NCBI GenBank assembly: GCA_023819375.1
Contig: JAMWDI010000001.1
Coordinates: 107,685 to 171,684 of the forward strand
DNA length: 64,000 nt
DNA from: Candidatus Omnitrophota bacterium
GTDB lineage: Bacteria > Ratteibacteria > UBA8468 > B48-G9 > JAFGKM01
Direction: 5' to 3'
Below are positions 23,401 through 57,389 of the stretch, one piece after another. The notes beneath the pieces were generated by a model. The model was not told the DNA's origin. It saw nothing but the letters and a program-made list of their open reading frames with translations, and did not search any database. Both the position numbers and the translations under genes were made by a program. The number at the start of each line of letters is the position of its first letter. Within the stretch, counting starts at the first letter, position 1.

Positions 23401-24345
23401 TTATATTTTAACATAATTGAAACTTGCATCAAACATATTTTCAAGTAAAAAACTGCTTATTGTTATTCCTCTAATTTCATTTATTTCAATTTCTTTTGGT
23501 ATTAAAATTTTAATTTCTTCATCCCTTTTTTCTTTTATAATTCCCAAAACTATATCCTCAAAAAATTTATTTTTTAAACAACATAGAAAACCTTTTAAAT
23601 CAATTTCAAAGACATCAGAAAATTTATTTAAATTCTTAAAATTTATCATTTTTATTGAAACTTCATTCAGTTTAATAATCAATTCTTTCAAGTTTTGAAA
23701 ATATTTACTAAATATTTTCTTTCTATAATTTGCTCTTTCTTCCATACTTTTTACAGGAATATTTTCTATTTTAATCCTTTCATATTTCATACCAGAATAC
23801 TTCAAAAATCTTACAATTTCTTCAAGTTCATTTTCTTTTTCAAGAAGAATAATAAAATCAGGTTTTAAAATTTCAATTTTATTAATTTTCAAAGATATTG
23901 CAAGTTTATCTCTTATATACCCAGTTGTATCAACTAAAATTTTCCCATTTTTATTTTCAAGATAATTGTTTATTTTAATCACACCTGTCAAAAATTCATT
24001 AATTGAAAAAGATGGTGCAATTATTCCTGTAAAATATAATTTTTCTGGATTTAAATAAAAATCATCTCCAATTTTTTCTTTCAATTTTGCATAACCAATT
24101 GTTGTTGGAGGACCAACATGAGATTGTCCTATATCACAATCAAAAATATATACTTCCTCTTTTTCAAATAAAAAATTTGCAATATTTTTTATTAAAGTTG
24201 TTTTTCCTGTATCACTTCCACCTATAAACATTATTTTTTTTATTTCTTTTTTAAGAAATATTTCAAATTCTTCTTTTTTTAAAACTTCAAATTCTTCCAT
24301 TTTGCAACTAAATACCCTATTATTTTGTAAATTAATTTTCCACAC
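23401..24345 (-). CDS. Clp1/Grc3-like P-loop polynucleotide kinase family protein
   Basis: 314 aa. Walker A GGSDTGKTT followed by FDCDIGQSHVGPPTTIGYA, matching the Clp1 D-x-D-x-GQ 'clasp'. Start uncertain; overlaps the agmatinase gene. Confidence 0.5.
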   Translation of the reverse strand: MWKINLQNNRVFSCKMEEFEVLKKEEFEIFLKKEIKKIMFIGGSDTGKTTLIKNIANFLFEKEEVYIFDCDIGQSHVGPPTTIGYAKLKEKIGDDFYLNPEKLYFTGIIAPSFSINEFLTGVIKINNYLENKNGKILVDTTGYIRDKLAISLKINKIEILKPDFIILLEKENELEEIVRFLKYSGMKYERIKIENIPVKSMEERANYRKKIFSKYFQNLKELIIKLNEVSIKMINFKNLNKFSDVFEIDLKGFLCCLKNKFFEDIVLGIIKEKRDEEIKILIPKEIEINEIRGITISSFLLENMFDASFNYVKI

Positions 24346-29993: not shown

Positions 29994-30911
29994 ATGATTT
30001 TAAAAACATGTATTGATTTTAATGAGAAATTTATTAAGATCATTGAAGGTTTTGAAAAAAAATCAAATTTATATATAACAAATATTGGAAAAATTGAAAG
30101 CCCTATTGAAGATCTAAAAAAAATAACAAGTGAAGATGTTGAAATTTTAGGGAATTTTTTAATAGATTATTTCAAAAAAAATAAATTTAAAGGGAAATTT
30201 GGAATATTTACAGTAAATGATGTTGATACAATTTATCATTATTTTGAATTACCTAATCTACCCGAAAATGAAATTGAAAATGCAATAAAATATGAAGGTG
30301 TTCAGTTAATACCAGATTTTATTGAAAATTATGAATATGATTATATTTCCTTTCATATAAACAATAAAAGAAATATTACACTTATTGCCTACCCTAAAAA
30401 TAAAGTTGATTTATACTGTCAAATATTAACAAAAGTAAAGTTGAAACCAATTATAATGGATGTTGCAGGAATTGCACTTTTAAATAGTTTTTTATATTTC
30501 AATCAAACTAAAGATATTGTTTGTTTTCTCAACTTTGGTTTTTCAATTACAAATTGTGTTATTTATTTAAAAGATAAATTTCTGTTCCTCAGAGATATTC
30601 CTGTTGGATTAAAAAACTTAAAAGATAAAGAGTTAATAGAGGAACAGATAAATGAGTTAAGCGAAGAAATAAATATTTCTATAAAATATTTCCAGAATAA
30701 AGTTGGTATTCCTGTTAAAAAAATTTATCTTACAGGATTGGAAAACCAAATTCCTGAAATTAAAGAAAAAATTGAAAGAAATTTAGAACTTCTATGTGAA
30801 TATTATAATCCATTTTTTTATCTTCCAGAAAACGCAATACTTTCTGAGATAAAAAAAGAAGGATCATTTTATTCTACGTGTTTTGGATTATTAACACGAA
30901 AAATAATATGA
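29994..30911 (+). CDS. pilM: Type IV pilus assembly protein PilM-like (actin-fold)
   Basis: 305 aa, position and sequence pattern consistent with PilM; ATGA overlap with the following gene. Confidence 0.6.
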   Translation: MILKTCIDFNEKFIKIIEGFEKKSNLYITNIGKIESPIEDLKKITSEDVEILGNFLIDYFKKNKFKGKFGIFTVNDVDTIYHYFELPNLPENEIENAIKYEGVQLIPDFIENYEYDYISFHINNKRNITLIAYPKNKVDLYCQILTKVKLKPIIMDVAGIALLNSFLYFNQTKDIVCFLNFGFSITNCVIYLKDKFLFLRDIPVGLKNLKDKELIEEQINELSEEINISIKYFQNKVGIPVKKIYLTGLENQIPEIKEKIERNLELLCEYYNPFFYLPENAILSEIKKEGSFYSTCFGLLTRKII

Positions 30912-31498
30912 TTGAAATAAATATTTTGAAAAAGAGATGGGAAAAATATAGAAAAAAATTTTTAATTGTTAAAATAGTTATTTATTATTTTGCAGGTTTA
31001 ATTTTAATTTTTTTCTTATGTTCGGTCATATTTTTTTCAAATAAATTTATAATAAATGGCATTAAAAAAGAAATTAAAACTCTCGAAAACAAAATAGCGG
31101 CAGAAAAAAATCTCATTGAAAACATAAAAGAAATTAATGCAAAATTACAGACTCTTTGTAAAAAATGCTCTTTATATGAAGATGAATATAAAAATAGGTT
31201 ATTATGGAGTAAAAATTTAGCGGTAATTTCTGAATCAGTACCATCTGGTATGTGGATAAGTAAACTTTCCTACCAAAGGGCATTCTCTGAAAGCGAAAAG
31301 AATATTACAATTATTGTTGAAGGCTTTATTTCTCCTTATTATATCAAACCAGAAAAAGGTTGTTTAATTTTTATCAATAATTTAAAAGCAAATGGAAAGA
31401 ATCTTTTTGACAAAGTATTACTTAGTGAAATAACAAAAGGATTAAAAGAAGATAATGAGGTTTATTATTTTAAATTTGAAATTAAGGTAAAAAAATGA
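30908..31498 (+). CDS. pilN: Type IV pilus assembly protein PilN-like
   Basis: Start placed at ATG 30908 (MIEINILKKR), overlapping the pilM stop. Single N-terminal TM helix then coiled-coil/periplasmic domain. Confidence 0.5.
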   Translation: MIEINILKKRWEKYRKKFLIVKIVIYYFAGLILIFFLCSVIFFSNKFIINGIKKEIKTLENKIAAEKNLIENIKEINAKLQTLCKKCSLYEDEYKNRLLWSKNLAVISESVPSGMWISKLSYQRAFSESEKNITIIVEGFISPYYIKPEKGCLIFINNLKANGKNLFDKVLLSEITKGLKEDNEVYYFKFEIKVKK

Positions 31499-32025
31499 AA
31501 GGATCACCAACTTTTATTAAAAAATGGGTTTTATGGATAATTTTAAGTTATGTTTTTTTTATAAGCCTATTTTTGGTTTTTGTTTTTATTCCTCAAAGAA
31601 ATCAAATTTTCAAATATAAAACCGAGAAAAATTTACTTGAATATAATTATTTAAAATTAAAAAATAATCCACAATTTTTACGATCAATAAAAGATTTAGT
31701 TGAAATTGCAGAAAATAAAATTTACAATTTTGAGTGGTTTACTTTTTATGACGATCCCAATATTGCTCTATATGATTATTTAGAAAATCTATCCTCACAA
31801 GCAGGAATTGAAATTATTTCCATAAAAGGCATTCCAGATAAAAATGAGTTATATTATCTCTGGGAAGTAAAATTACAAGGAGATTTCAAAAATTTTGTCT
31901 CTTTTGTTTATCTTATTGAAACTGGAAAAAAATATTTGAAAATTGAAGAAATAGAAATTATTTCAGGAGAAAAAGGCGAAAGTTTTTATAATTTAAAACT
32001 TGCAGGGCTGAGAGGAATAAAATAA
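31495..32025 (+). CDS. pilO: Type IV pilus assembly protein PilO-like
   Basis: 176 aa, single N-terminal TM helix, ATGA overlap with pilN, conserved position in the pilMNOPQ order. Confidence 0.5.
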   Translation: MKGSPTFIKKWVLWIILSYVFFISLFLVFVFIPQRNQIFKYKTEKNLLEYNYLKLKNNPQFLRSIKDLVEIAENKIYNFEWFTFYDDPNIALYDYLENLSSQAGIEIISIKGIPDKNELYYLWEVKLQGDFKNFVSFVYLIETGKKYLKIEEIEIISGEKGESFYNLKLAGLRGIK

Positions 32026-32029
32026 AAAA

Positions 32030-32539
32030 ATGGAGAGAAAAAAACTAACTTTACTTGTTTTAACTATAGTTTTAATACTTCTTTGGGCATGGCAATTAAA
32101 ACCAAAAAAGAAGAAAATAAATATTGAACCTATAATTGAAGAAAAAGAAATTATTGCTGGAATTAATTTAAGAGAAATAGAAGAAAATTTTTCAGAAATA
32201 AAGAAAAAAATAGTTGAAATTGAAAATATTAATAAAGCCAACATTGGAAAGATTACAATTCAAAAAAATCCATTGAAACCCTGGATTTTAAGAAAAGAAT
32301 CTCTAACAAAAGAGGAGAAAGAACCTGAAAAACCCAATTTTAAAATATCTGGAATTGTTCAAGGTAGCAAAAAATCTTATGTAATAATTGATAATGAAGT
32401 AAAAGAAGAAGGAGAAACAATTGGAAATTTTATAATTTTTAAAATCTACCCCGAAAAAGTTATTTTGAAAGATATGACTGGAAATTTTTTTACCTTAAAT
32501 TTTGAATTTGAACAAGGAGGAAACAATGAAAAACAGTAA
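32030..32539 (+). CDS. PilP-like pilus assembly protein
   Basis: 169 aa, N-terminal hydrophobic anchor, C-terminal beta-rich region (FKISGIVQGSKKSYVIIDNE). Positioned before the secretin. Confidence 0.4.
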   Translation: MERKKLTLLVLTIVLILLWAWQLKPKKKKINIEPIIEEKEIIAGINLREIEENFSEIKKKIVEIENINKANIGKITIQKNPLKPWILRKESLTKEEKEPEKPNFKISGIVQGSKKSYVIIDNEVKEEGETIGNFIIFKIYPEKVILKDMTGNFFTLNFEFEQGGNNEKQ

Positions 32540-34520: not shown

Positions 34521-35009
34521 TTGAAAAAAAGTTATTTATTTTTAACTGAAATATTATTACTTACTTTTATACTTGCAGGATGTGAATGTGGTCCTGGAAT
34601 ACCAGAAGAACCAATTGATAGACCTGAACCAGAATTACCACCACCTTCTCCACCTACTCCACCACCTTCTACTACTCAAGATGAATATTTCCAACTTGAA
34701 GGGAATAATCTTGTTTATTTTGATGGAAAAAATAAATATTATTTAATAAAAGGAAAAGTTGAAAGTGTAAAATTTGAAAAAGTAAAAGGAGATGGGAATT
34801 CTTATTATATAAGTGTAAATTTAAAACTAAAGGATGGACAAATAATAACCAATCTGGATTCAATAATTGCCTTAAGGAACATAAACAGAACTGTAAATTC
34901 GGGAACATCTTCAGGTGGTTCAGTTGATCCAGGTGGAGGTACTTCTCCACCACCTAATTTTGAACCAATAGAACCACCAGAAGTTGGCCCAGTAATACCA
35001 CCATATTAA
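34521..35009 (+). CDS. Lipoprotein with proline-rich linker (pilus-locus associated)
   Basis: 162 aa, TTG start. Lipobox LAGC, Pro-rich tracts (PPPSPPTPPPS; C-terminal PPPNFEPIEPPEVGPVIPP). Confidence 0.5.
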   Translation: MKKSYLFLTEILLLTFILAGCECGPGIPEEPIDRPEPELPPPSPPTPPPSTTQDEYFQLEGNNLVYFDGKNKYYLIKGKVESVKFEKVKGDGNSYYISVNLKLKDGQIITNLDSIIALRNINRTVNSGTSSGGSVDPGGGTSPPPNFEPIEPPEVGPVIPPY

Positions 35010-35010
35010 A

Positions 35011-36009
35011 ATGAAAAAAGGGATTGCTTTAATTTCAGTAGTAATGATTGTTATGATACTTACATTAATGGGTCTTGCTTTTTTGAATATGTCTGGTCTT
35101 GAAAATATATTATCTAAAAGACAAAATTTTTATTTAAAAGCCCTTAATATTGCAGAAGCAGGACTTGAAAGAGCCTTGTGGAAATTAACGAAACAGCCTA
35201 ATTGGAGAAGTGGATGGAATAACATTTCTTTTGATGATGGGTATTATAAAGTAACTCTATCAGATCAATCAGATGGAACAATCTTAATAATTTCTACTGG
35301 ATATTGTAAAAATATAAGTAAGACAGTAAAAGCAACTGTAAGAGTTTCGTCTTCCTCATCTTCTCCTTCGATATCTTTTACATTAGGAACATCTTTGGGT
35401 AATCTTGGAGATTTTCCAGGATCTTATGGAGACATAGGACAAAGTTTTACAACTGGCTCATCTCAAATAAAGGTTGCAAGAGTGGAAATGCAAATAAAAA
35501 AGGACAACCCAAACGTAAGTGATATTTATATGACTATAAGAAGTGGAAGCACAGTTGGTCAAATTTTAGGAACAAGCAATATAATACCAAATTCTCAAAT
35601 TCCTTCTGGAAATGCTTTATGGATTTCTTTTAATTTTGATCCCCCTGTTTTACTTCAACCAAATACAAAATATTATTTAAGATTATCTTCAATTCCGCCT
35701 TCTACAAATCCATATTCAGGAGCACAAGGTAAGATACACCTTGTCTATGCAAATCCTTCATATAGAAGAGTTGGAGGAGGACATACGAGTAGTGATATAG
35801 GAGATGGATTACCAAGTTATGATGAACCTGGTTTTGTTGAAGTAAGTCCGTATGTATATGGTGAAGCATATAGATATATAGGAAGAAACAATAATCCATC
35901 ATATCCAGGTGAAGTTTTAAATCATGATTTTAATTTCAGGATTTTTAGTACTTCAAGTGGAAGCGTAAACATAATAAACTGGACTGAAGAACCATACAAT
36001 AATTTTTAA
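35011..36009 (+). CDS. PilX-like minor pilin / pilus-associated protein
   Basis: 332 aa. N-terminal PilX_N-like hydrophobic segment (GIALISVVMIVMILTLMGLAFL), Ser-rich tract. Confidence 0.5.
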   Translation: MKKGIALISVVMIVMILTLMGLAFLNMSGLENILSKRQNFYLKALNIAEAGLERALWKLTKQPNWRSGWNNISFDDGYYKVTLSDQSDGTILIISTGYCKNISKTVKATVRVSSSSSSPSISFTLGTSLGNLGDFPGSYGDIGQSFTTGSSQIKVARVEMQIKKDNPNVSDIYMTIRSGSTVGQILGTSNIIPNSQIPSGNALWISFNFDPPVLLQPNTKYYLRLSSIPPSTNPYSGAQGKIHLVYANPSYRRVGGGHTSSDIGDGLPSYDEPGFVEVSPYVYGEAYRYIGRNNNPSYPGEVLNHDFNFRIFSTSSGSVNIINWTEEPYNNF

Positions 36010-45106: not shown

Positions 45107-45848
45107 TGCCCTTTGATTTTAAATAATTTTTAATTTCTTGAATTGTAAGGATTCTAAAATGCAGAAGAGATGCAAGTAAAATTGCACTTGCTTTCCCTTC
45201 TACAATCGCTTCATATAAATGTTCAAGTTTTCCTGCTCCTCCAGAAGCAATTACAGGAATATTCACAGATTCACTAACTTTTTTCGTCAATTCTATATCA
45301 TATCCCTCTTGAGTTCCGTCTCTATCTATACTGGTTAAAAGTATCTCGCCTGCTCCTAAATCTTCAACTTTTTTCGCCCACTCAATAACATCAAGTCCGG
45401 TTGGTGTTTTTCCACTTTCAATGTAAACTTCCCATTTATCCTTGTCTATTTTTTTCCCATCAATAGCAACAACTATACATTGACTTCCAAATCTTTTTGC
45501 TCCTTCTTCAATAATTTTAGGATTTCTTACAGCAGAAGTATTTATTGATACCTTATCTGCACCGTTTGAAAGTAAATCTTCTATATCTTTTATTGTGGAA
45601 ATTCCTCCACCAACAGTAAATGGAATAAACACAACATCAGCAACTTTTTTAACAACTTCAACCATAGTTTTTCTGCCTTCAATTGTAGCACTTATATCAA
45701 GAAAAACAATTTCATCTGCTCCTTCTTTGCAATAATAAGAGGCATTTTCAACAGGGTCGCCTGCAATTCTTAAATTTTCAAATTGTACTCCTTTCACAAC
45801 TTTGCCATTTTTTACATCTAAACAAGGAATAATTCTCACTGCAACCAT
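45084..45848 (-). CDS. hisF: Imidazole glycerol phosphate synthase cyclase subunit HisF (or sugar-pathway paralogue)
   Basis: 254 aa (beta/alpha)8 barrel with [16 protein letters not shown] start and phosphate-binding SGGAG, TSID blocks. Confidence 0.8.
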
Positions 45849-46444
45849 TTTCCCTCCAATAAATTTTTTAAAAATAATAAACCAATTTTTCCACTTTTTT
45901 CTGGATGAAATTGAACTCCAACAATATTTTCTTTTGAAATGACTGACGGAAAATTTATTCCATATTCTGTTTCTCCTATAATTAAACTTTTATTGGTTTT
46001 AACATAATATGAGTGTGCAAAGTAAAAATAGGAATTATCTTGAATATTTTCAAAAAAATTCTCTCTTTTTAAAATTTTAACTCTATTCCAACCCATATGA
46101 GGAACTTTCAAATTTTTATCCTTAAATTTAATTACTTTTCCTTTTAAAATTCCCAATCCTTCCTTATTGCCTTCTTCACTCCATTCAAAAAGTAATTGAA
46201 ATCCAAGACAAATGCCAAGAAAGGGCATTCCTTTCTCTATCCATTTTTTTATTTCATTTCTCAAATCTGTTTCTTCTAAATATTTCATTCCTGAAGCAAA
46301 ATGTCCGACTCCAGGAAGAATCAAAAATTTTATTTTATTTAAAACTCTAAGATTTTCAATTAAAATAACCTCTTTGCCAAGATATCTTATTGCTGAAATT
46401 ACACTATAGATATTTCCTACATTATACTTTACAATCCCAACCAT
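45836..46444 (-). CDS. hisH: Imidazole glycerol phosphate synthase glutaminase subunit HisH (class I GATase)
   Basis: 202 aa. LPGVGHF, catalytic GICLGFQ, VPHMGWN and HPE motifs. Overlaps hisF. Confidence 0.8.
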
Positions 46445-46459
46445 TATCTTTTTTAAAAA

Positions 46460-47398
46460 TTATACATACTCAATTGTACTTGGTGGTTTTGGAGTTATAT
46501 CATATAAAACTTTAACAACACCAGGAACTTCTTTTAATATTCTATCTCTAATTTTAAATAATCTATCCCAAGGAATTTTTACTACCTCTGCAGTTAAAGC
46601 ATCTTCTGAAATAACTGCTCTAATACTTATTATATCTCCAAGTAATCTTTTACCTTCAACAATTCCTGTTGCTTTATCAGAAAAAAGGACAGGAAATGCT
46701 TGAAAGATTTCTTTTTCTTTAAGTTCTTCTTCTACTATTTTTGTCGCTTTTCTTATTTTTTCTACCCTATCTCTTGTAACTTCACCTAAAATTCTCGTTG
46801 CAAGTCCTGGACCTGGAAAAGGTTTTCTTTCATATACTTTTTTGGGTAACCCCAACTCTTTTGCAACCTCTCTCACTTGAGGTTTAAAAAGTTCTTTCAA
46901 GGGTTCTATAATGGTAAGACCAAAAAAAGCAGGATTTAAGCCTATTTGAGAAAGGACATTATGTTGTGTTTTTATCCCTTTTTGAGTTTCAATAATATCT
47001 GCTGCAATTGTTCCTTGAATTAAAAAATCTGCAGAATAACTCCTCACTGCTTGGCCAAGAATTTTGTAAAAAGTTTCTCTAAATGCCTTCCTTTTTTCTT
47101 CTGGATCTATTTTTCCTTTTAAAGAGTCAAAAAAATTATCCTCAACATCCCATACTTCAAGTTCAATTTCATATTTTTTCAATACCTCTTTTACTTCTTC
47201 TGCCTCATTTTCTCTCATTAAACCATCATTTATAAATAAAACTACAAGATTATCCCCTATTGCTTTTTTGGTAAGAACTGCACAAACGGTACTGTCTACT
47301 CCTCCAGATGTTGCAACTAGTGCTTTTTTATCCTTAATTTTTTTCTTCAGTTCTTCAATTTTTTCTTTTATAAACTTTTTTGGACTAAATTTCGCCAT
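46460..47398 (-). CDS. guaA: GMP synthase ATP-pyrophosphatase subunit (GuaA subunit B type; no fused GATase domain)
   Basis: 312 aa. PP-loop SGGVDS, QGTIAADIIE, EPLKELFK, PFPGPGLATR, DITPKPPSTIEY motifs of the GMP synthase C-terminal domains. Confidence 0.8.
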   Translation of the reverse strand: MAKFSPKKFIKEKIEELKKKIKDKKALVATSGGVDSTVCAVLTKKAIGDNLVVLFINDGLMRENEAEEVKEVLKKYEIELEVWDVEDNFFDSLKGKIDPEEKRKAFRETFYKILGQAVRSYSADFLIQGTIAADIIETQKGIKTQHNVLSQIGLNPAFFGLTIIEPLKELFKPQVREVAKELGLPKKVYERKPFPGPGLATRILGEVTRDRVEKIRKATKIVEEELKEKEIFQAFPVLFSDKATGIVEGKRLLGDIISIRAVISEDALTAEVVKIPWDRLFKIRDRILKEVPGVVKVLYDITPKPPSTIEYV

Positions 47399-47624
47399 TT
47401 ATTTCCCCTCCTTTCTATATTAAAAATTTTTCGAATCTGTCCCTTTCTTTTTTCTATTTTTATCTTTTAAAATAATTTACCCCAGATTTCATGTCAAAAA
47501 GATACTATTGGATTATCTTTATTTTATCATACAAATTAAGAAGTTCAAATTTATATACATTTAAATATTTTTTGTAAAAATAGGGAATTTTACTTTTTAC
47601 ATTGCTAAACTACTTGTTAATATC

Positions 47625-48845
47625 TTAAAATAATGTCATTTCTTCAAAATTATTCCTATCCTCAATTTTAATTTCTATTTTCCCAAACTCTCCATCATAA
47701 CCAGGTTTTATTATCACATTGCCATCTCTCACTTTTTTTATACCCCCAAATATTTTCTCATCAATTTTACTCCTCAGTTCCTCCTCATCTGCTTCGAGAA
47801 GAACATATAATTCTGTTCCAATTTTATTTATAATATCAAAATAACTTTTTTGAACTATTTGAGAAGTTATTTCTTTATTCAAAACACAACTTATTATTTG
47901 ATCAAGTGGAACAAGTTTCTTAAATGGAACATATTTTTGTGGCTTTTCGTCTAATTTCCTATCTGCAAGTTCTTCAACTCTATGCATTACTCCAACAGTA
48001 ACTTTTTTCCCACAAACAGGACAGAGATAATTATTTTTTTTTGTTTCTTCTGGGGAAAGACAAACTCCACAATTTCTGTGGCCGTCATAGTGATATTTCC
48101 CTTCTTCTGGAAAATATTCAATAGTCATTTTAAAATTTTTATTTTTTAGTATTTCTATAAGTTGTTTAAAATCAAATTTATCAAAAAAAACATTTGCTTC
48201 TCTCCCTATCTTTGAAGGCGAATGAGCATCAGAATTTGAAATTAAAGAATATCTGTCTAACCTTGACAATCTCCAGTTCATTTCAGGATCGCTACTTAAA
48301 CCTGTTTCAAGAGCAAAAATTTCACTCGTTAAATCTCCAAAACAATCTTCAATTCTATCAAAACCAGAATTAGAACCAAAAAGAGAAAAATGTGGTGTCC
48401 AAATATGGGCAGGAACAACAAAACCAAATTCATCCACTTCTTTTAAAATTTCTAAAAGTTCTCTTGCAGAAAGTTGTAAAGTTGGACGTCCATCAGCATT
48501 TAAATCACCATACTTTTCAATATTTCTATTGAATTTTTCAACTTTTTCAATAGTTGAGATAAATATTATATTATGAACCTTTTTTGTAACACCTTTATAC
48601 TCAAAAATATTGCATACCTCTCCTGTCAGAATAAAATCAATTCCACCATACTGATAAATGCCAAATCGTTCTGTTTCTTTAAGATTTCTTTTTAACTCAT
48701 GAAACCAGTAAAAATGTGTAATATCTCCCGTTCCAAGGAGATTAATACCCTTATATTTTGCCCACTTCACAAGCCCATCAAGTTCCATATCTTTACTTGT
48801 TGCTCTACTATATTTTGAATGAATATGGAAATCAGCAATATACAT
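47625..48845 (-). CDS. PHP-domain nuclease, endonuclease Q (EndoQ/TIGR00375)-like
   Basis: 406 aa. N-terminal PHP motif YIADFHIHSKYSRATS, further His/Asp metal-ligand blocks, C-terminal zinc finger (CPVCGKK). Confidence 0.55.
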   Translation of the reverse strand: MYIADFHIHSKYSRATSKDMELDGLVKWAKYKGINLLGTGDITHFYWFHELKRNLKETERFGIYQYGGIDFILTGEVCNIFEYKGVTKKVHNIIFISTIEKVEKFNRNIEKYGDLNADGRPTLQLSARELLEILKEVDEFGFVVPAHIWTPHFSLFGSNSGFDRIEDCFGDLTSEIFALETGLSSDPEMNWRLSRLDRYSLISNSDAHSPSKIGREANVFFDKFDFKQLIEILKNKNFKMTIEYFPEEGKYHYDGHRNCGVCLSPEETKKNNYLCPVCGKKVTVGVMHRVEELADRKLDEKPQKYVPFKKLVPLDQIISCVLNKEITSQIVQKSYFDIINKIGTELYVLLEADEEELRSKIDEKIFGGIKKVRDGNVIIKPGYDGEFGKIEIKIEDRNNFEEMTLF

Positions 48846-48847
48846 TG

Positions 48848-49336
48848 TTAAATTTCCTTTTTAAATTCTTTTTTCAAAATTTTGGCAAGTTGGTCAAGTG
48901 ATTGAGGTATTATTTTTGTATTTGATATTACAGGCATAAAATTTGTATCTCCTTGCCACCTTGGAACAATATGAATATGTATATGATCTTCAAGACCTGC
49001 TCCTGATACCTTACCAAGATTTAATCCTATATTGAATCCTTCTGGATTTAGAATTTTCTTTAAAACTTTTACTGATTTCTGTAATAATAAAATCAACTCA
49101 TTAATCTCTTCTTCCTTTAAATCTTCTATTTCTTTAATATGTCTGAAAGGAGCAAGCATTATGTGACCATTATTGTAAGGGAAAATATTCATTATGATAA
49201 AATTATTTTTCCCTTTATAGACAACATACTTATTTTTTTTTAAGTTTACACTTTCACAGAGAAAACACTTATTTTTTTTGACTTTAATGATGTAACCAAT
49301 TCTCCAAGGAGCCCATATTATATCTCTGAAATTCAT
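48848..49336 (-). CDS. HIT-family nucleotide hydrolase/transferase
   Basis: Track ORF begins at a TTG (49372); first ATG is at 49336 (MNFRDIIWAPWR). Histidine triad HIHIHIV. Confidence 0.6.
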   Translation of the reverse strand: MNFRDIIWAPWRIGYIIKVKKNKCFLCESVNLKKNKYVVYKGKNNFIIMNIFPYNNGHIMLAPFRHIKEIEDLKEEEINELILLLQKSVKVLKKILNPEGFNIGLNLGKVSGAGLEDHIHIHIVPRWQGDTNFMPVISNTKIIPQSLDQLAKILKKEFKKEI

Positions 49337-49381
49337 TTTTAAAATTTTAATCCATATAAAAAAATTTTTCAAAAAACTCTT

Positions 49382-57053: not shown

Positions 57054-57389
57054 ATGGATTGTGTATTTTGTAAAATAATAAAAAATGAGATAAAAAGTGA
57101 AAAAATTTACGAAGATGAGGATGTCATATGTATAAGAGATATAAATCCACAGGCACCAATCCATATTTTAATAATTCCTAAAAAACATATTGAAAAACTT
57201 TATCAAACAGATGAAATTGAACTTCTTGGAAAAATGTTAAAAATTGCATGCTTAATGGCAGAAAAAGAAAAAATCAAAGAGTCAGGATTCAGAATAGTTA
57301 TAAATACAAACAGAAATGCAGGCCAAAGTGTAGAACATATTCATTTTCATCTTTTAGGTGGAAGGGTAATGCTTTGGCCACCTGGTTAA
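57054..57389 (+). CDS. Histidine triad nucleotide-binding protein (HINT-like)
   Basis: 111 aa with HIHFHLLGG histidine triad. Confidence 0.8.
   Translation: MDCVFCKIIKNEIKSEKIYEDEDVICIRDINPQAPIHILIIPKKHIEKLYQTDEIELLGKMLKIACLMAEKEKIKESGFRIVINTNRNAGQSVEHIHFHLLGGRVMLWPPG

Follow-up and report, generated by a model that had tools for sequence, protein, structure and literature searches.

A full-length endonuclease Q homologue from a widespread, mainly bacterial clade in an Omnitrophota-type genome

The locus described here lies within a 64 kb stretch of DNA that was analyzed as a whole (the window), and consists of a gene predicted to code for an endonuclease Q (EndoQ) family protein together with the genes and spacer that flank it:

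46460..47398, gene for the ATP-pyrophosphatase of GMP synthase (TIGR00884, 343.9 bits, above cut-off)
47399..47624, minus strand, AT-rich spacer of 226 nt from endoQ to the GMP synthase gene (sequence and consensus scan)
47625..48845, minus strand, endoQ open reading frame, 406 amino acids plus stop codon with an ATG start, predicted EndoQ-family lesion-specific endonuclease
48848..49372, minus strand, upstream HIT-family gene related to Ap4A phosphorylase/ATP adenylyltransferase (NCBIfam match)

The endoQ reading frame is intact and real according to the ORF listing of the window, and its GC content of ~0.28-0.29 is the same as that of the remainder of the window. An earlier note on this DNA had described a HIT-family gene on one side and the upstream region of a GMP synthase gene on the other, and these are indeed the neighbors. 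The best NCBIfam match of the HIT gene is ATP adenylyltransferase (E=5e-47). Only 2 nt separate the end of this gene from the EndoQ ATG, and the two genes are probably co-transcribed. Public gene callers place the start of the HIT gene later, which results in a product of 162 amino acids. The spacer on the other side contains sigma-70-like hexamers at 47548-47521 and 47497-47469 as well as a strong AGGAGG ribosome-binding site. Promoter-like matches across the region number 48, which is barely above the shuffle expectation of 37.8 ± 7.0; neither kind of scan, for promoters or for terminators, is informative in DNA this rich in AT. An Rfam scan detected no family in the spacer and only one tRNA, which is located elsewhere in the window. 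Finally, a survey of the whole window revealed neither a further base-repair gene nor any marker of mobile elements. There are thus no repair genes nearby that would back a pathway, which counts against an EndoQ reading of the gene.

The TIGR00375 profile search that the earlier note had proposed as a check returned a match of E=5e-63 covering profile positions 2-374 of 374, with a score of 213.6 bits that falls below the curated whole-protein cut-off of 326.6 bits for this NCBIfam hypothetical equivalog. The Pyrococcus furiosus enzyme (PfuEndoQ, PDB 5zb8/7k30) is matched with E=1e-56, with query residues 4-395 aligning to Pfu residues 5-385 at 36% sequence identity over 374 columns. Together these two matches indicate a similarity far above chance. 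Regarding the cut-off, other members of the clade to which the window protein belongs score 180-222 bits, the Bacillales YqxK-type protein scores 264 bits and PfuEndoQ(5-385) scores 430 bits. Since the Bacillales YqxK-type EndoQ also falls below the cut-off while PfuEndoQ passes, the cut-off delimits the archaeal clade and does not define EndoQ function. NCBI already holds an identical protein (P0001) from a Candidatus Omnitrophica MAG under the name 'endonuclease Q family protein', so the identification as EndoQ is not new. A precomputed match to Pfam PF27218 (MJ0043_C) is on record for this identical protein and for all listed relatives. A direct Pfam-A scan of the window protein gave no PF27218 match, and its sole PHP-type match was a weak, sub-threshold one to PHP_C.

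This PHP_C match, together with metal ligands that are common to such enzymes, is what speaks for a generic PHP phosphoesterase acting on nucleotides or RNA (similar to YcdX, RNase AM or BAD_1165) in place of a DNA lesion endonuclease. However, this alternative is effectively refuted by the predicted structure and by the residues discussed below. The AlphaFold model of the window protein (pLDDT 89.9, pTM 0.89) superposes on 5zb8 in all three domains with TM 0.85/0.87 and an rmsd of 2.3 Å over 404 columns, and on the dU-DNA complex 7k30 with TM 0.82, while the next-best structural matches are generic PHP enzymes at TM ≤0.36 that cover the N-terminal domain only. [quoted passage not shown] The protein is therefore placed with EndoQ and not among generic PHP phosphoesterases devoid of EndoQ domains, the placement that the earlier note had named as telling against its reading. 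The alignment and, over ~400 columns, the model both contain the three-domain EndoQ architecture, with the EndoQ domain limits taken from PMC5961232, and on these two grounds the window protein is a full-length EndoQ homologue:

48111..48845, minus strand, PHP catalytic domain, residues 1-245 (residue mapping onto PfuEndoQ)
47910..48110, minus strand, predicted Zn-binding domain, residues ~246-312 (aligns to PfuEndoQ 239-303; confidently modeled)
48012..48080, minus strand, predicted zinc ligands H256, C259 ... C275, C278 with a CPVCG knuckle (alignment and conservation)
47661..47909, minus strand, C-terminal helical domain, residues 313-395, which includes a conserved PGYDGEFGK hairpin (aligns to PfuEndoQ 304-385; high-pLDDT helices)
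47628..47660, minus strand, disordered C-terminal tail, residues 396-406, ending in EMTLF (pLDDT <50)

The PHP metal ligands of PfuEndoQ (His8, His10, Glu76, His84, His139 and Asp193) have been described as completely conserved among homologues (PMC5961232), and all six map onto the window protein as H7, H9, E76, H91, H147 and D206. This bears out the metal-ligand blocks that the earlier note had seen downstream of an N-terminal PHP motif; the motif that it quoted, YIADFHIHSKYSRATS, corresponds to residues 2-17. The six ligands are invariant in sets of 30 and of 113 relatives, and a Gln is found at position 7 in two of 81 cross-phylum sequences. R120 and H208, which are also invariant among relatives, align with PfuEndoQ Arg114 and His195, two residues that are essential for activity and that set EndoQ apart from three-metal PHP enzymes (PMC5961232). 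In generic PHP phosphoesterases, ligands of a third metal occupy the places of the EndoQ Ser and Arg (PMC5961232); retention of R120 and of the EndoQ-specific pocket in the window protein, where BAD_1165 has third-metal ligands, is thus a further argument against a generic enzyme.

The pocket that receives the deaminated base in PfuEndoQ is formed by His139, Thr142, Glu167, the main chain of Leu168, Gly169, Leu170, Ser171, Asn191 and Asp193 (PMC5961232 and PMC8307549). Among these positions H147, T150, E180, G182, L183, S184, N204 and D206 are conserved in the window protein, with T150, E180, G182, L183, S184 and N204 aligned to Pfu T142, E167, G169, L170, S171 and N191, respectively, and Pfu L168, a main-chain contact, is replaced by T181. 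PfuEndoQ residues H139, G169 and S171, which sterically exclude T and A according to PMC8307549, are present as H147, G182 and S184. Catalytic and pocket residues are invariant or nearly so throughout the sets of 30, 81 and 113 relatives. Mutations that nearly abolish PfuEndoQ activity affect E76, H84, H139, D193, R114, H195 and K243, along with G169 and L170 for dI (PMC5961232). Every one of these positions is kept in the window protein and is invariant in up to 113 relatives. At R201 the change is a conservative one, to K212. With DNA-complex contacts drawn from PMC11354406, PMC8438529 and PMC8307549, the Zn-binding domain residues K243 and Y244 are retained as K250 and Y251, both invariant in 113 relatives, and two moderate-effect contacts differ from Pfu (R251 is N258 and K276 is T283). 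Pfu Trp144 is His152 in the window protein. A lost DNA wedge was considered for this substitution and rejected, given that a His also occupies this position in the Bacillales-type protein, that Trp and His alternate within the clade and that, according to a later paper (PMC11354406), DNA-complex structures show no side-chain wedging and did not confirm the wedge model.

By homology with PfuEndoQ, the PHP domain would hold the catalytic metal ions through H7, H9, E76, H91, H147 and D206, and a deaminated base (uracil or hypoxanthine, and probably also xanthine or an abasic site) would be extruded into a rigid pocket composed of H147, T150, E180, G182, L183, S184 and N204 in which H147, G182 and S184 would keep out T and A on steric grounds. 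Hydrolysis would then take place at the phosphodiester bond immediately 5' of the lesion, leaving a 3'-OH nick that could initiate glycosylase-independent (alternative/nucleotide-incision) excision repair. Because the active site and the pocket are conserved, we infer that the window protein incises 5' of dU, dI, dX or an AP site, and we give a probability of about 0.85 to the gene coding for a functional bacterial endonuclease Q. This agrees with the EndoQ-like PHP nuclease that the earlier note had proposed, given an ORF at exactly 47625-48845, the full-length PfuEndoQ match, the three-domain model and the conserved pocket. Counting against a functional EndoQ, besides the missing repair neighbors, are the TIGR00375 score, a His as the predicted first zinc ligand, the changed contacts at N258, T283 and His152, a clamp motif that has lost its Gln, and our finding no biochemically tested member of the clade. 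Functional analogues that perform glycosylase-free, lesion-specific nicking at deaminated bases are endonuclease V (Nfi) and the uridine-endonuclease ExoIII (Mth212), both of which have folds (RNase H-like and EEP, respectively) that are unrelated to EndoQ; structural comparison of the window model revealed no homology to either one. Mth212 also cuts 5' of dU (PMC4357722 and PMC8307549), and the bond that EndoV cleaves is the second one 3' of the lesion (PMC5961232 and PMC8307549).

The 'C-terminal zinc finger (CPVCGKK)' of the earlier note is only partly correct. The motif does exist at residues 275-281, but it belongs to the central Zn-binding domain, which is C-terminal to the PHP domain, and does not form the C-terminus of the protein. 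Likewise, the CPVCG knuckle expected of an EndoQ zinc finger is present, but H256-x2-C259, and not a CxxC pair, most likely makes up the first half of the site. The alignment to Pfu C249/C252/C268/C271 is ungapped with a constant offset of +7, which places H256 at Pfu Cys249 and C259 at C252. None of the 113 close relatives departs from H256, C259, C275 and C278, and 80-81 of the 81 cross-phylum sequences have the same residues. We also considered C259-x2-C262 as the first knuckle of a Cys4 site and rejected it: position 262, a Cys in the window protein, is Cys in only 14/81 cross-phylum sequences, and Arg is its commonest residue. Since C262 is not conserved and His256 aligns with Pfu Cys249, the conserved zinc site is probably a His-Cys3 site (H256, C259, C275, C278) and not a classic Cys4 site, and it is probably this site that would hold the Zn-binding domain together.

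The window copy of the tail keeps T-L-F of its terminal EMTLF and is without the conserved Gln of the clade consensus QxxLF, so that EMTLF is best described as a degenerate, putative beta-clamp-binding motif. An exact terminal QxxLF is present in 73/113 close relatives and in 51/81 cross-phylum homologues, and L405 and F406 are near-invariant. Members labeled as DPANN terminate instead in a PIP-like QxxLxxFF. Judged from these sequences, the tail motif tracks the clamp type of the host, with QxxLF in bacteria and QxxLxxFF in DPANN archaea, and the enzyme is probably anchored to the beta sliding clamp by its flexible tail. We do not regard the motif as a new observation, since Shiraishi et al. 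2016 (PMC4858679) had already pointed out such a beta-clamp motif for the bacterial homologues of EndoQ.

When the window protein is compared with the P. furiosus and T. kodakarensis enzymes (PF1551, TK0887; PDB 5ZB8, 7K30-7K33), the three-domain architecture is common to both sides, as are the PHP ligands, R114/H195, the lesion pocket, K243/Y244, the CPxCG knuckle and a disordered C-terminal tail with a sliding-clamp motif (putative in the window protein), at TM 0.82-0.87. There are several differences from PfuEndoQ. The predicted first zinc ligand is His256 in the window protein versus Cys249 in Pfu, the beta-hairpin that follows E76 is seven residues longer, three residues are inserted near position 160, H152 takes the place of W144, and neither R251 nor K276 is conserved. 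The tail motif is of the bacterial beta-clamp type (EMTLF; QxxLF in the clade) as opposed to the Pfu PIP box QRTLLQYI, and the host is a low-GC Omnitrophota-type bacterium and not a hyperthermophilic archaeon.

The Bacillus-type EndoQ (B. pumilus EndoQ, B. subtilis YqxK) was represented by a Brevibacillus laterosporus homologue obtained by tblastn on a replicon of this organism (L084:3989-5170), which we take to be the YqxK orthologue on the gene order of the B. subtilis locus. Similar to the window protein, this type is bacterial, has the same three domains and catalytic residues, has a His where Pfu has W144, does not reach the TIGR00375 cut-off and is coded by a gene that follows a nucleotide-hydrolase gene (NUDIX there, HIT here). 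However, the two proteins are only 27% identical, and the Brevibacillus protein keeps a Cys4 site (TACQGC...CPACG), has no terminal QxxLF and has an inserted, divergent N-terminal motif (HIHIGGTMSGK...). The window protein is nearer to the archaeal enzyme than to the Bacillus type.

The window protein belongs to a large clade that is neither of the archaeal type nor of the Bacillus YqxK type. In the sequence databases the clade is present in at least 600 species-representative genomes and forms ~980 clusters at 50% identity (E≤1e-30), with members in Omnitrophota, WOR-3, Nitrospirota, Thermodesulfobacteriota, Planctomycetota, Firmicutes, CPR bacteria and DPANN archaea. The 'archaeal-type' label used in the earlier note is therefore misleading, given a clade that is mainly bacterial and very widespread. 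We found no literature report in which a member of this clade was tested biochemically; the EndoQs that have been characterized (Pfu, Tko, Mac, Bpu) either reach an identity of only 27-36% or fall into other clades.

The gene contexts of the relatives bear on what job the enzyme performs. In many lineages, same-clade EndoQs are fused to complete UvrD/PcrA helicases, which is consistent with a nick-then-unwind role in repair. Other relatives, at 11-17 of 80 loci, are within pyrimidine de novo operons (pyrR-pyrB-pyrC-endoQ-pyrK-pyrD-pyrF/carB), and HIT-endoQ adjacency occurs at eight of the 80 loci (the close relatives L004-L006 and several WOR-3 loci). One could envision from the operons that the EndoQ fold has shifted to a different job, either mainly as an AP endonuclease or as a replisome-tethered nuclease for misincorporated dUMP/dIMP that is tied to the nucleotide pool. 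In line with such a shift, the clade is distinct from all characterized EndoQs, the window gene lies beside a HIT nucleotide enzyme and GMP synthase much as a NUDIX hydrolase gene is the neighbor in Bacillales, the clamp motif implies that the enzyme acts where replication or repair synthesis takes place, and B. subtilis YqxK is enriched on abasic-site DNA (PMC10220248). We nevertheless consider this shift unlikely. Pfu G169, which is G182 here, is needed for cleavage at hypoxanthine but not at an AP site (PMC5961232), so that the invariance of G182 and of the remainder of the base pocket argues for retained base recognition, and operon context is circumstantial and differs between lineages.

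It has to be regarded as highly improbable that the primary role is defense against phages with uracil-containing DNA and not genome repair. The gene has housekeeping neighbors with no defense-island or mobile-element features in the window, and a role in repair is suggested by the conserved clamp motifs and by the fusions to UvrD. Our search found no phage-borne homologue and one plasmid-labeled copy, and the latter is in the gene order of the chromosomal yqxK locus of B. subtilis.

We thus retain endonuclease Q as the reading of the window gene. Significance for the window itself is small, in that a DNA-repair gene was rightly recognized and its product was already named in NCBI. For the family, we tentatively propose, at somewhat less than even odds, that the His-Cys3 clade may be the principal bacterial/DPANN EndoQ, a clamp-tethered nickase, often fused to UvrD or located in pyr operons, that would carry out glycosylase-independent, replication-coupled removal of uracil and hypoxanthine co-regulated with nucleotide synthesis. 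If true, this would overturn the literature view of EndoQ as an essentially archaeal enzyme with few bacterial outliers. Testing a single member of the clade would address whether bacteria commonly use incision at uracil and hypoxanthine without a glycosylase as a mainstream repair route. PfuEndoQ is already in use for deamination assays, and a characterized clade member could yield a mesophilic EndoQ for this purpose.

The coordinates and motifs that led the earlier note to propose an EndoQ-like PHP nuclease are those of a single ORF in the ORF listing, and profile matches bear out both of the genes between which it was said to lie:

47625..48845, minus strand: endoQ, 406 aa, beginning MYIADFHIHSKYSRATS and containing YLCPVCGKKVT.
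48848..49372, upstream of endoQ: HIT-family gene, closest to ATP adenylyltransferase/Ap4A phosphorylase models.
46460..47398: GMP synthase ATP-pyrophosphatase (C-terminal) unit, guaA-B, 312 aa, above the TIGR00884 cut-off.

The endoQ start is located 2 nt past the HIT gene stop with a purine-rich AAGGA immediately upstream, and between endoQ and the next gene are a 226-nt AT-rich spacer and an AGGAGG ribosome-binding site. The GC content of endoQ is that of the surrounding DNA. The zinc finger CPVCGKK is also present, although the C-terminal position ascribed to it is not, as residues 275-281 are mid-protein, C-terminal to the PHP domain.

Profile, structural and residue comparisons all support the EndoQ identity of this protein. 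Specifically, the TIGR00375 (NCBIfam) search that had been proposed as a check gave a match spanning model positions 2-374 of 374, its full length (E=5e-63, 213.6 bits), though below the curated cut-off of 326.6 bits, and a local Pfam-A scan gave a weak PHP_C match and nothing else. A sequence search of the PDB returned only entries of Pyrococcus furiosus endonuclease Q (PfuEndoQ; 5zb8, 7k30-33) at E=1e-56, with residues 4-395 aligning to PfuEndoQ chain residues 5-385 at 36% identity over 374 aligned columns. An AlphaFold2 model built with 30 relatives as input (pLDDT 89.9, pTM 0.89) has disorder confined to residues 396-406, and its best Foldseek match in the PDB is apo PfuEndoQ (TM 0.85/0.87, rmsd 2.3 A, 404 columns), with the dU-DNA complex 7k30 at TM 0.82. 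The alternative that this is a generic PHP phosphoesterase without the zinc finger and additional domains of EndoQ was rejected, as such enzymes are far behind in Foldseek (3e0f at TM 0.36, then RNase AM and YcdX) and none is among the PDB sequence matches; the full-length PfuEndoQ and fold matches therefore argue against it. An identical protein with a precomputed Pfam PF27218 (MJ0043_C) match is already in NCBI (assembly GCA_023819425.1) under the EndoQ name, and the window gene is supported as a new member of this known enzyme family, with its activity and substrate range predicted by homology.

Residue roles defined experimentally in PfuEndoQ (PMC5961232, PMC8307549) map onto the window protein as follows:

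Metal ligands: PfuEndoQ H8, H10, E76, H84, H139, D193; window H7, H9, E76, H91, H147, D206.
Essential pair: PfuEndoQ R114, H195; window R120, H208.
Lesion pocket: PfuEndoQ T142, E167, G169, L170, S171, N191; window T150, E180, G182, L183, S184, N204.
Main-chain pocket contact: PfuEndoQ L168; window T181.
DNA-contact residues: PfuEndoQ K243, Y244, R201; window K250, Y251, K212.
Moderate-effect basic residues: PfuEndoQ R251, K276; window N258, T283, not conserved.
Proposed wedge: PfuEndoQ W144; window H152.

Across alignments of 30, 81 and 113 relatives the conserved positions vary little or not at all, and the non-conserved basic positions N258 and T283 are adjoined by invariant R257 and K280/K281. 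We also considered whether the W144 to H152 change disqualifies the protein, and rejected this because PMC11354406 describes DNA-complex structures in which the base is flipped without a side-chain wedge, and because His also occupies this position in the Bacillales-type (YqxK-type) EndoQ; within the clade W and H alternate. By homology, duplex DNA would be bent in the cleft of the enzyme's three domains and the deaminated base extruded into a pocket beside the PHP metal site, where H147, G182 and S184 would shut out thymine methyl and adenine amino groups. The enzyme would then hydrolyze the phosphodiester directly 5' to the lesion, and the nick, ending in a 3'-OH, would be repaired by strand displacement or excision followed by resynthesis and ligation.

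The third zinc of PfuEndoQ is held by C249, C252, C268 and C271 (PMC5961232). Alignment to this region is ungapped with a constant +7 offset, and the equivalents of these ligands are therefore H256, C259, C275 and C278:

48012-48080 (residues 256-278): predicted zinc ligands H256, C259, C275 and C278, from alignment and conservation.

None of these four residues varies among the 113 close relatives, and each is kept in 80-81 of 81 homologs from many phyla. Pairing of C259 with C262 as a CxxC motif was rejected, as position 262 is Cys in only 14 of the 81 cross-phylum homologs and is most commonly Arg. Most likely, then, the clade is characterized by a His-Cys3 structural zinc site (His-x2-Cys...Cys-x2-Cys), whereas PfuEndoQ and the Bacillales type have Cys4, an arrangement retained by the Brevibacillus laterosporus protein.

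The protein terminates in a short tail:

47628-47660 (residues 396-406): C-terminal tail ending EMTLF, predicted disordered.

The canonical bacterial beta-clamp-binding pentapeptide is QL[SD]LF, and we take the QxxLF tail of the clade to be this motif. An exact QxxLF terminus is present in 51 of the 81 cross-phylum homologs, and in ~10 more it lies 1-3 residues short of the terminus or reads QLSFF; close relatives end in QxxLF (73/113) or ExxLF (27/113, mostly EQTLF) with the L and F near-invariant. Members from MAGs labelled as DPANN archaea (L035, L049, L050, L063, L080) have PIP-like ends, QxxLxx[FY][FL], such as QKSLDEFF, QKGLSSFF and QRGLGEYL, indicating that the tail tracks the sliding-clamp type of the host. 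The Thermococcus kodakarensis enzyme binds PCNA via a C-terminal PIP box and has its activity stimulated by PCNA, the PfuEndoQ PIP box is QRTLLQYI, and beta-clamp motifs in bacterial EndoQ homologs were noted previously (PMC4858679); the clade-wide motif is thus a confirmation of that report and not a discovery. Clamp binding by the window protein itself is plausible but uncertain, since its degenerate EMTLF keeps T-L-F without the Gln.

The literature examined greatly understates the size of the family. All 8000 scored candidates of a homolog search (8000/8000; at least 8000 homologs) fell at E<=1e-5, and searching 1.84 billion cluster representatives exhaustively yielded 3366 clusters at E<=1e-3, 2061 at 1e-10 and 979 at 1e-30. 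The clade motifs LSSDPxMNW and EGKYH[YF]DG occur in at least 600 species-representative genomes, with carriers in Omnitrophota, WOR-3, Planctomycetota, Nitrospirota, Thermodesulfobacteriota, Firmicutes, Aminicenantes, CPR/Patescibacteria and DPANN archaea. Identity between the window protein and the Bacillales-type EndoQ of B. laterosporus is only 27%, and the latter has its own divergent N-terminal motif; its locus order, nudF-endoQ-spoIIM-fur-xerD-deoB, is presumably that of the B. subtilis yqxK locus. Because TIGR00375 scores are graded by clade (PfuEndoQ 430 bits, Bacillales type 264, window clade 180-222), the missed cut-off is explained by clade structure rather than by a lost function. 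The window protein falls in a third clade; our literature search turned up no published test of any of its members, and the clade differs from the characterized enzymes in its probable His-Cys3 site, beta-clamp-type tail and sub-cut-off score. No phage-borne homologs were found, and the one plasmid-labelled match is in a Brevibacillus yqxK-like gene order that we take to be chromosomal in B. subtilis.

The window is ordinary bacterial chromosome with genes for NAD, Cys/Met and His biosynthesis, a type IV pilus cluster, tmk-holB, one tRNA, a CCA-adding enzyme, two glycosyltransferases, nusA-infB, PTS genes and metK; within these 64 kb we found no mobile-element markers and no UDG, EndoV, ExoIII, UvrD, PolA or ligase. 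GMP synthase is split (45836-47398), with the ATP-pyrophosphatase half alone at 46460-47398 adjoined by a 202-aa class-I glutamine amidotransferase, hisH-like (45836-46444), and then hisF. A second, small HIT gene adjoins infB (about 57054-57389, converted from L001). The 314-aa product of 23401-24345 (minus) contains a P-loop domain of Clp1 type (PF16575, E=3e-31); the best-known members of this family are RNA/polynucleotide kinases of eukaryotes and archaea, and here it occurs in a bacterial genome. Several 160-330-aa ORFs in or after the type IV pilus/secretin cluster (30878-32539, 34521-36009) have no Pfam match at E<=1e-8 and may be divergent, PilN/O/P-like assembly components.

The order CCA-GT2-GT4-HIT-endoQ/guaA-B-hisH-hisF is common only to the three closest species (L004-L006). 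A HIT gene adjoins endoQ in 8 of the 80 relatives' loci (L004-L006, L022, L033, L038, L066, L079); this HIT family is Ap4A-phosphorylase-like and occurs in close relatives and several WOR-3 genomes. A same-strand pyrimidine de novo operon ordered pyrR-like PRTase, pyrB, pyrC, endoQ, pyrK, pyrD, then pyrF or carB contains the gene in 11-17 of the 80 loci, as listed here for many Omnitrophota-type genomes:

L009, L011, L012, L016-L019, L021, L023-L030, L042: endoQ in the pyrimidine operon.

An Fpg/MutM gene is near or downstream in three of these (L017, L018, L042). Nine loci have a SLOG-family gene. In the Brevibacillus locus a NUDIX hydrolase gene (L084:3423-3986) precedes endoQ. Speculatively, these recurring nucleotide-metabolism neighbors may reflect co-regulation of the enzyme with nucleotide pools.

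EndoQ of this clade is very often part of a helicase fusion. Many homologs, and the majority of the 150 top cluster representatives, are 1000-1200 aa long; the latter share may be inflated if, as we assume, the longest members are chosen as representatives. Pfam matches place a complete UvrD/PcrA helicase C-terminal to the EndoQ module in Anaerotruncus massiliensis and in Pirellulaceae and Moorellaceae MAGs, and fusions are located at:

L065:6001-9225, L073:6001-9192, L069:5995-9471: EndoQ-UvrD/PcrA fusions.

Further fusions are found at L058, L060, L076, L078, L082 and L083 and in most of the homologous proteins P0121-P0269, and in such proteins the clamp motif forms the end of the fusion. 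Some entries bear the older name "DNA helicase UvrD", which the fusion accounts for; no description of the fusion was found in the literature searched. This domain arrangement points to processing of the EndoQ nick by a UvrD-type helicase. What the finding adds is modest, namely the unappreciated breadth of the clade and its helicase fusions.
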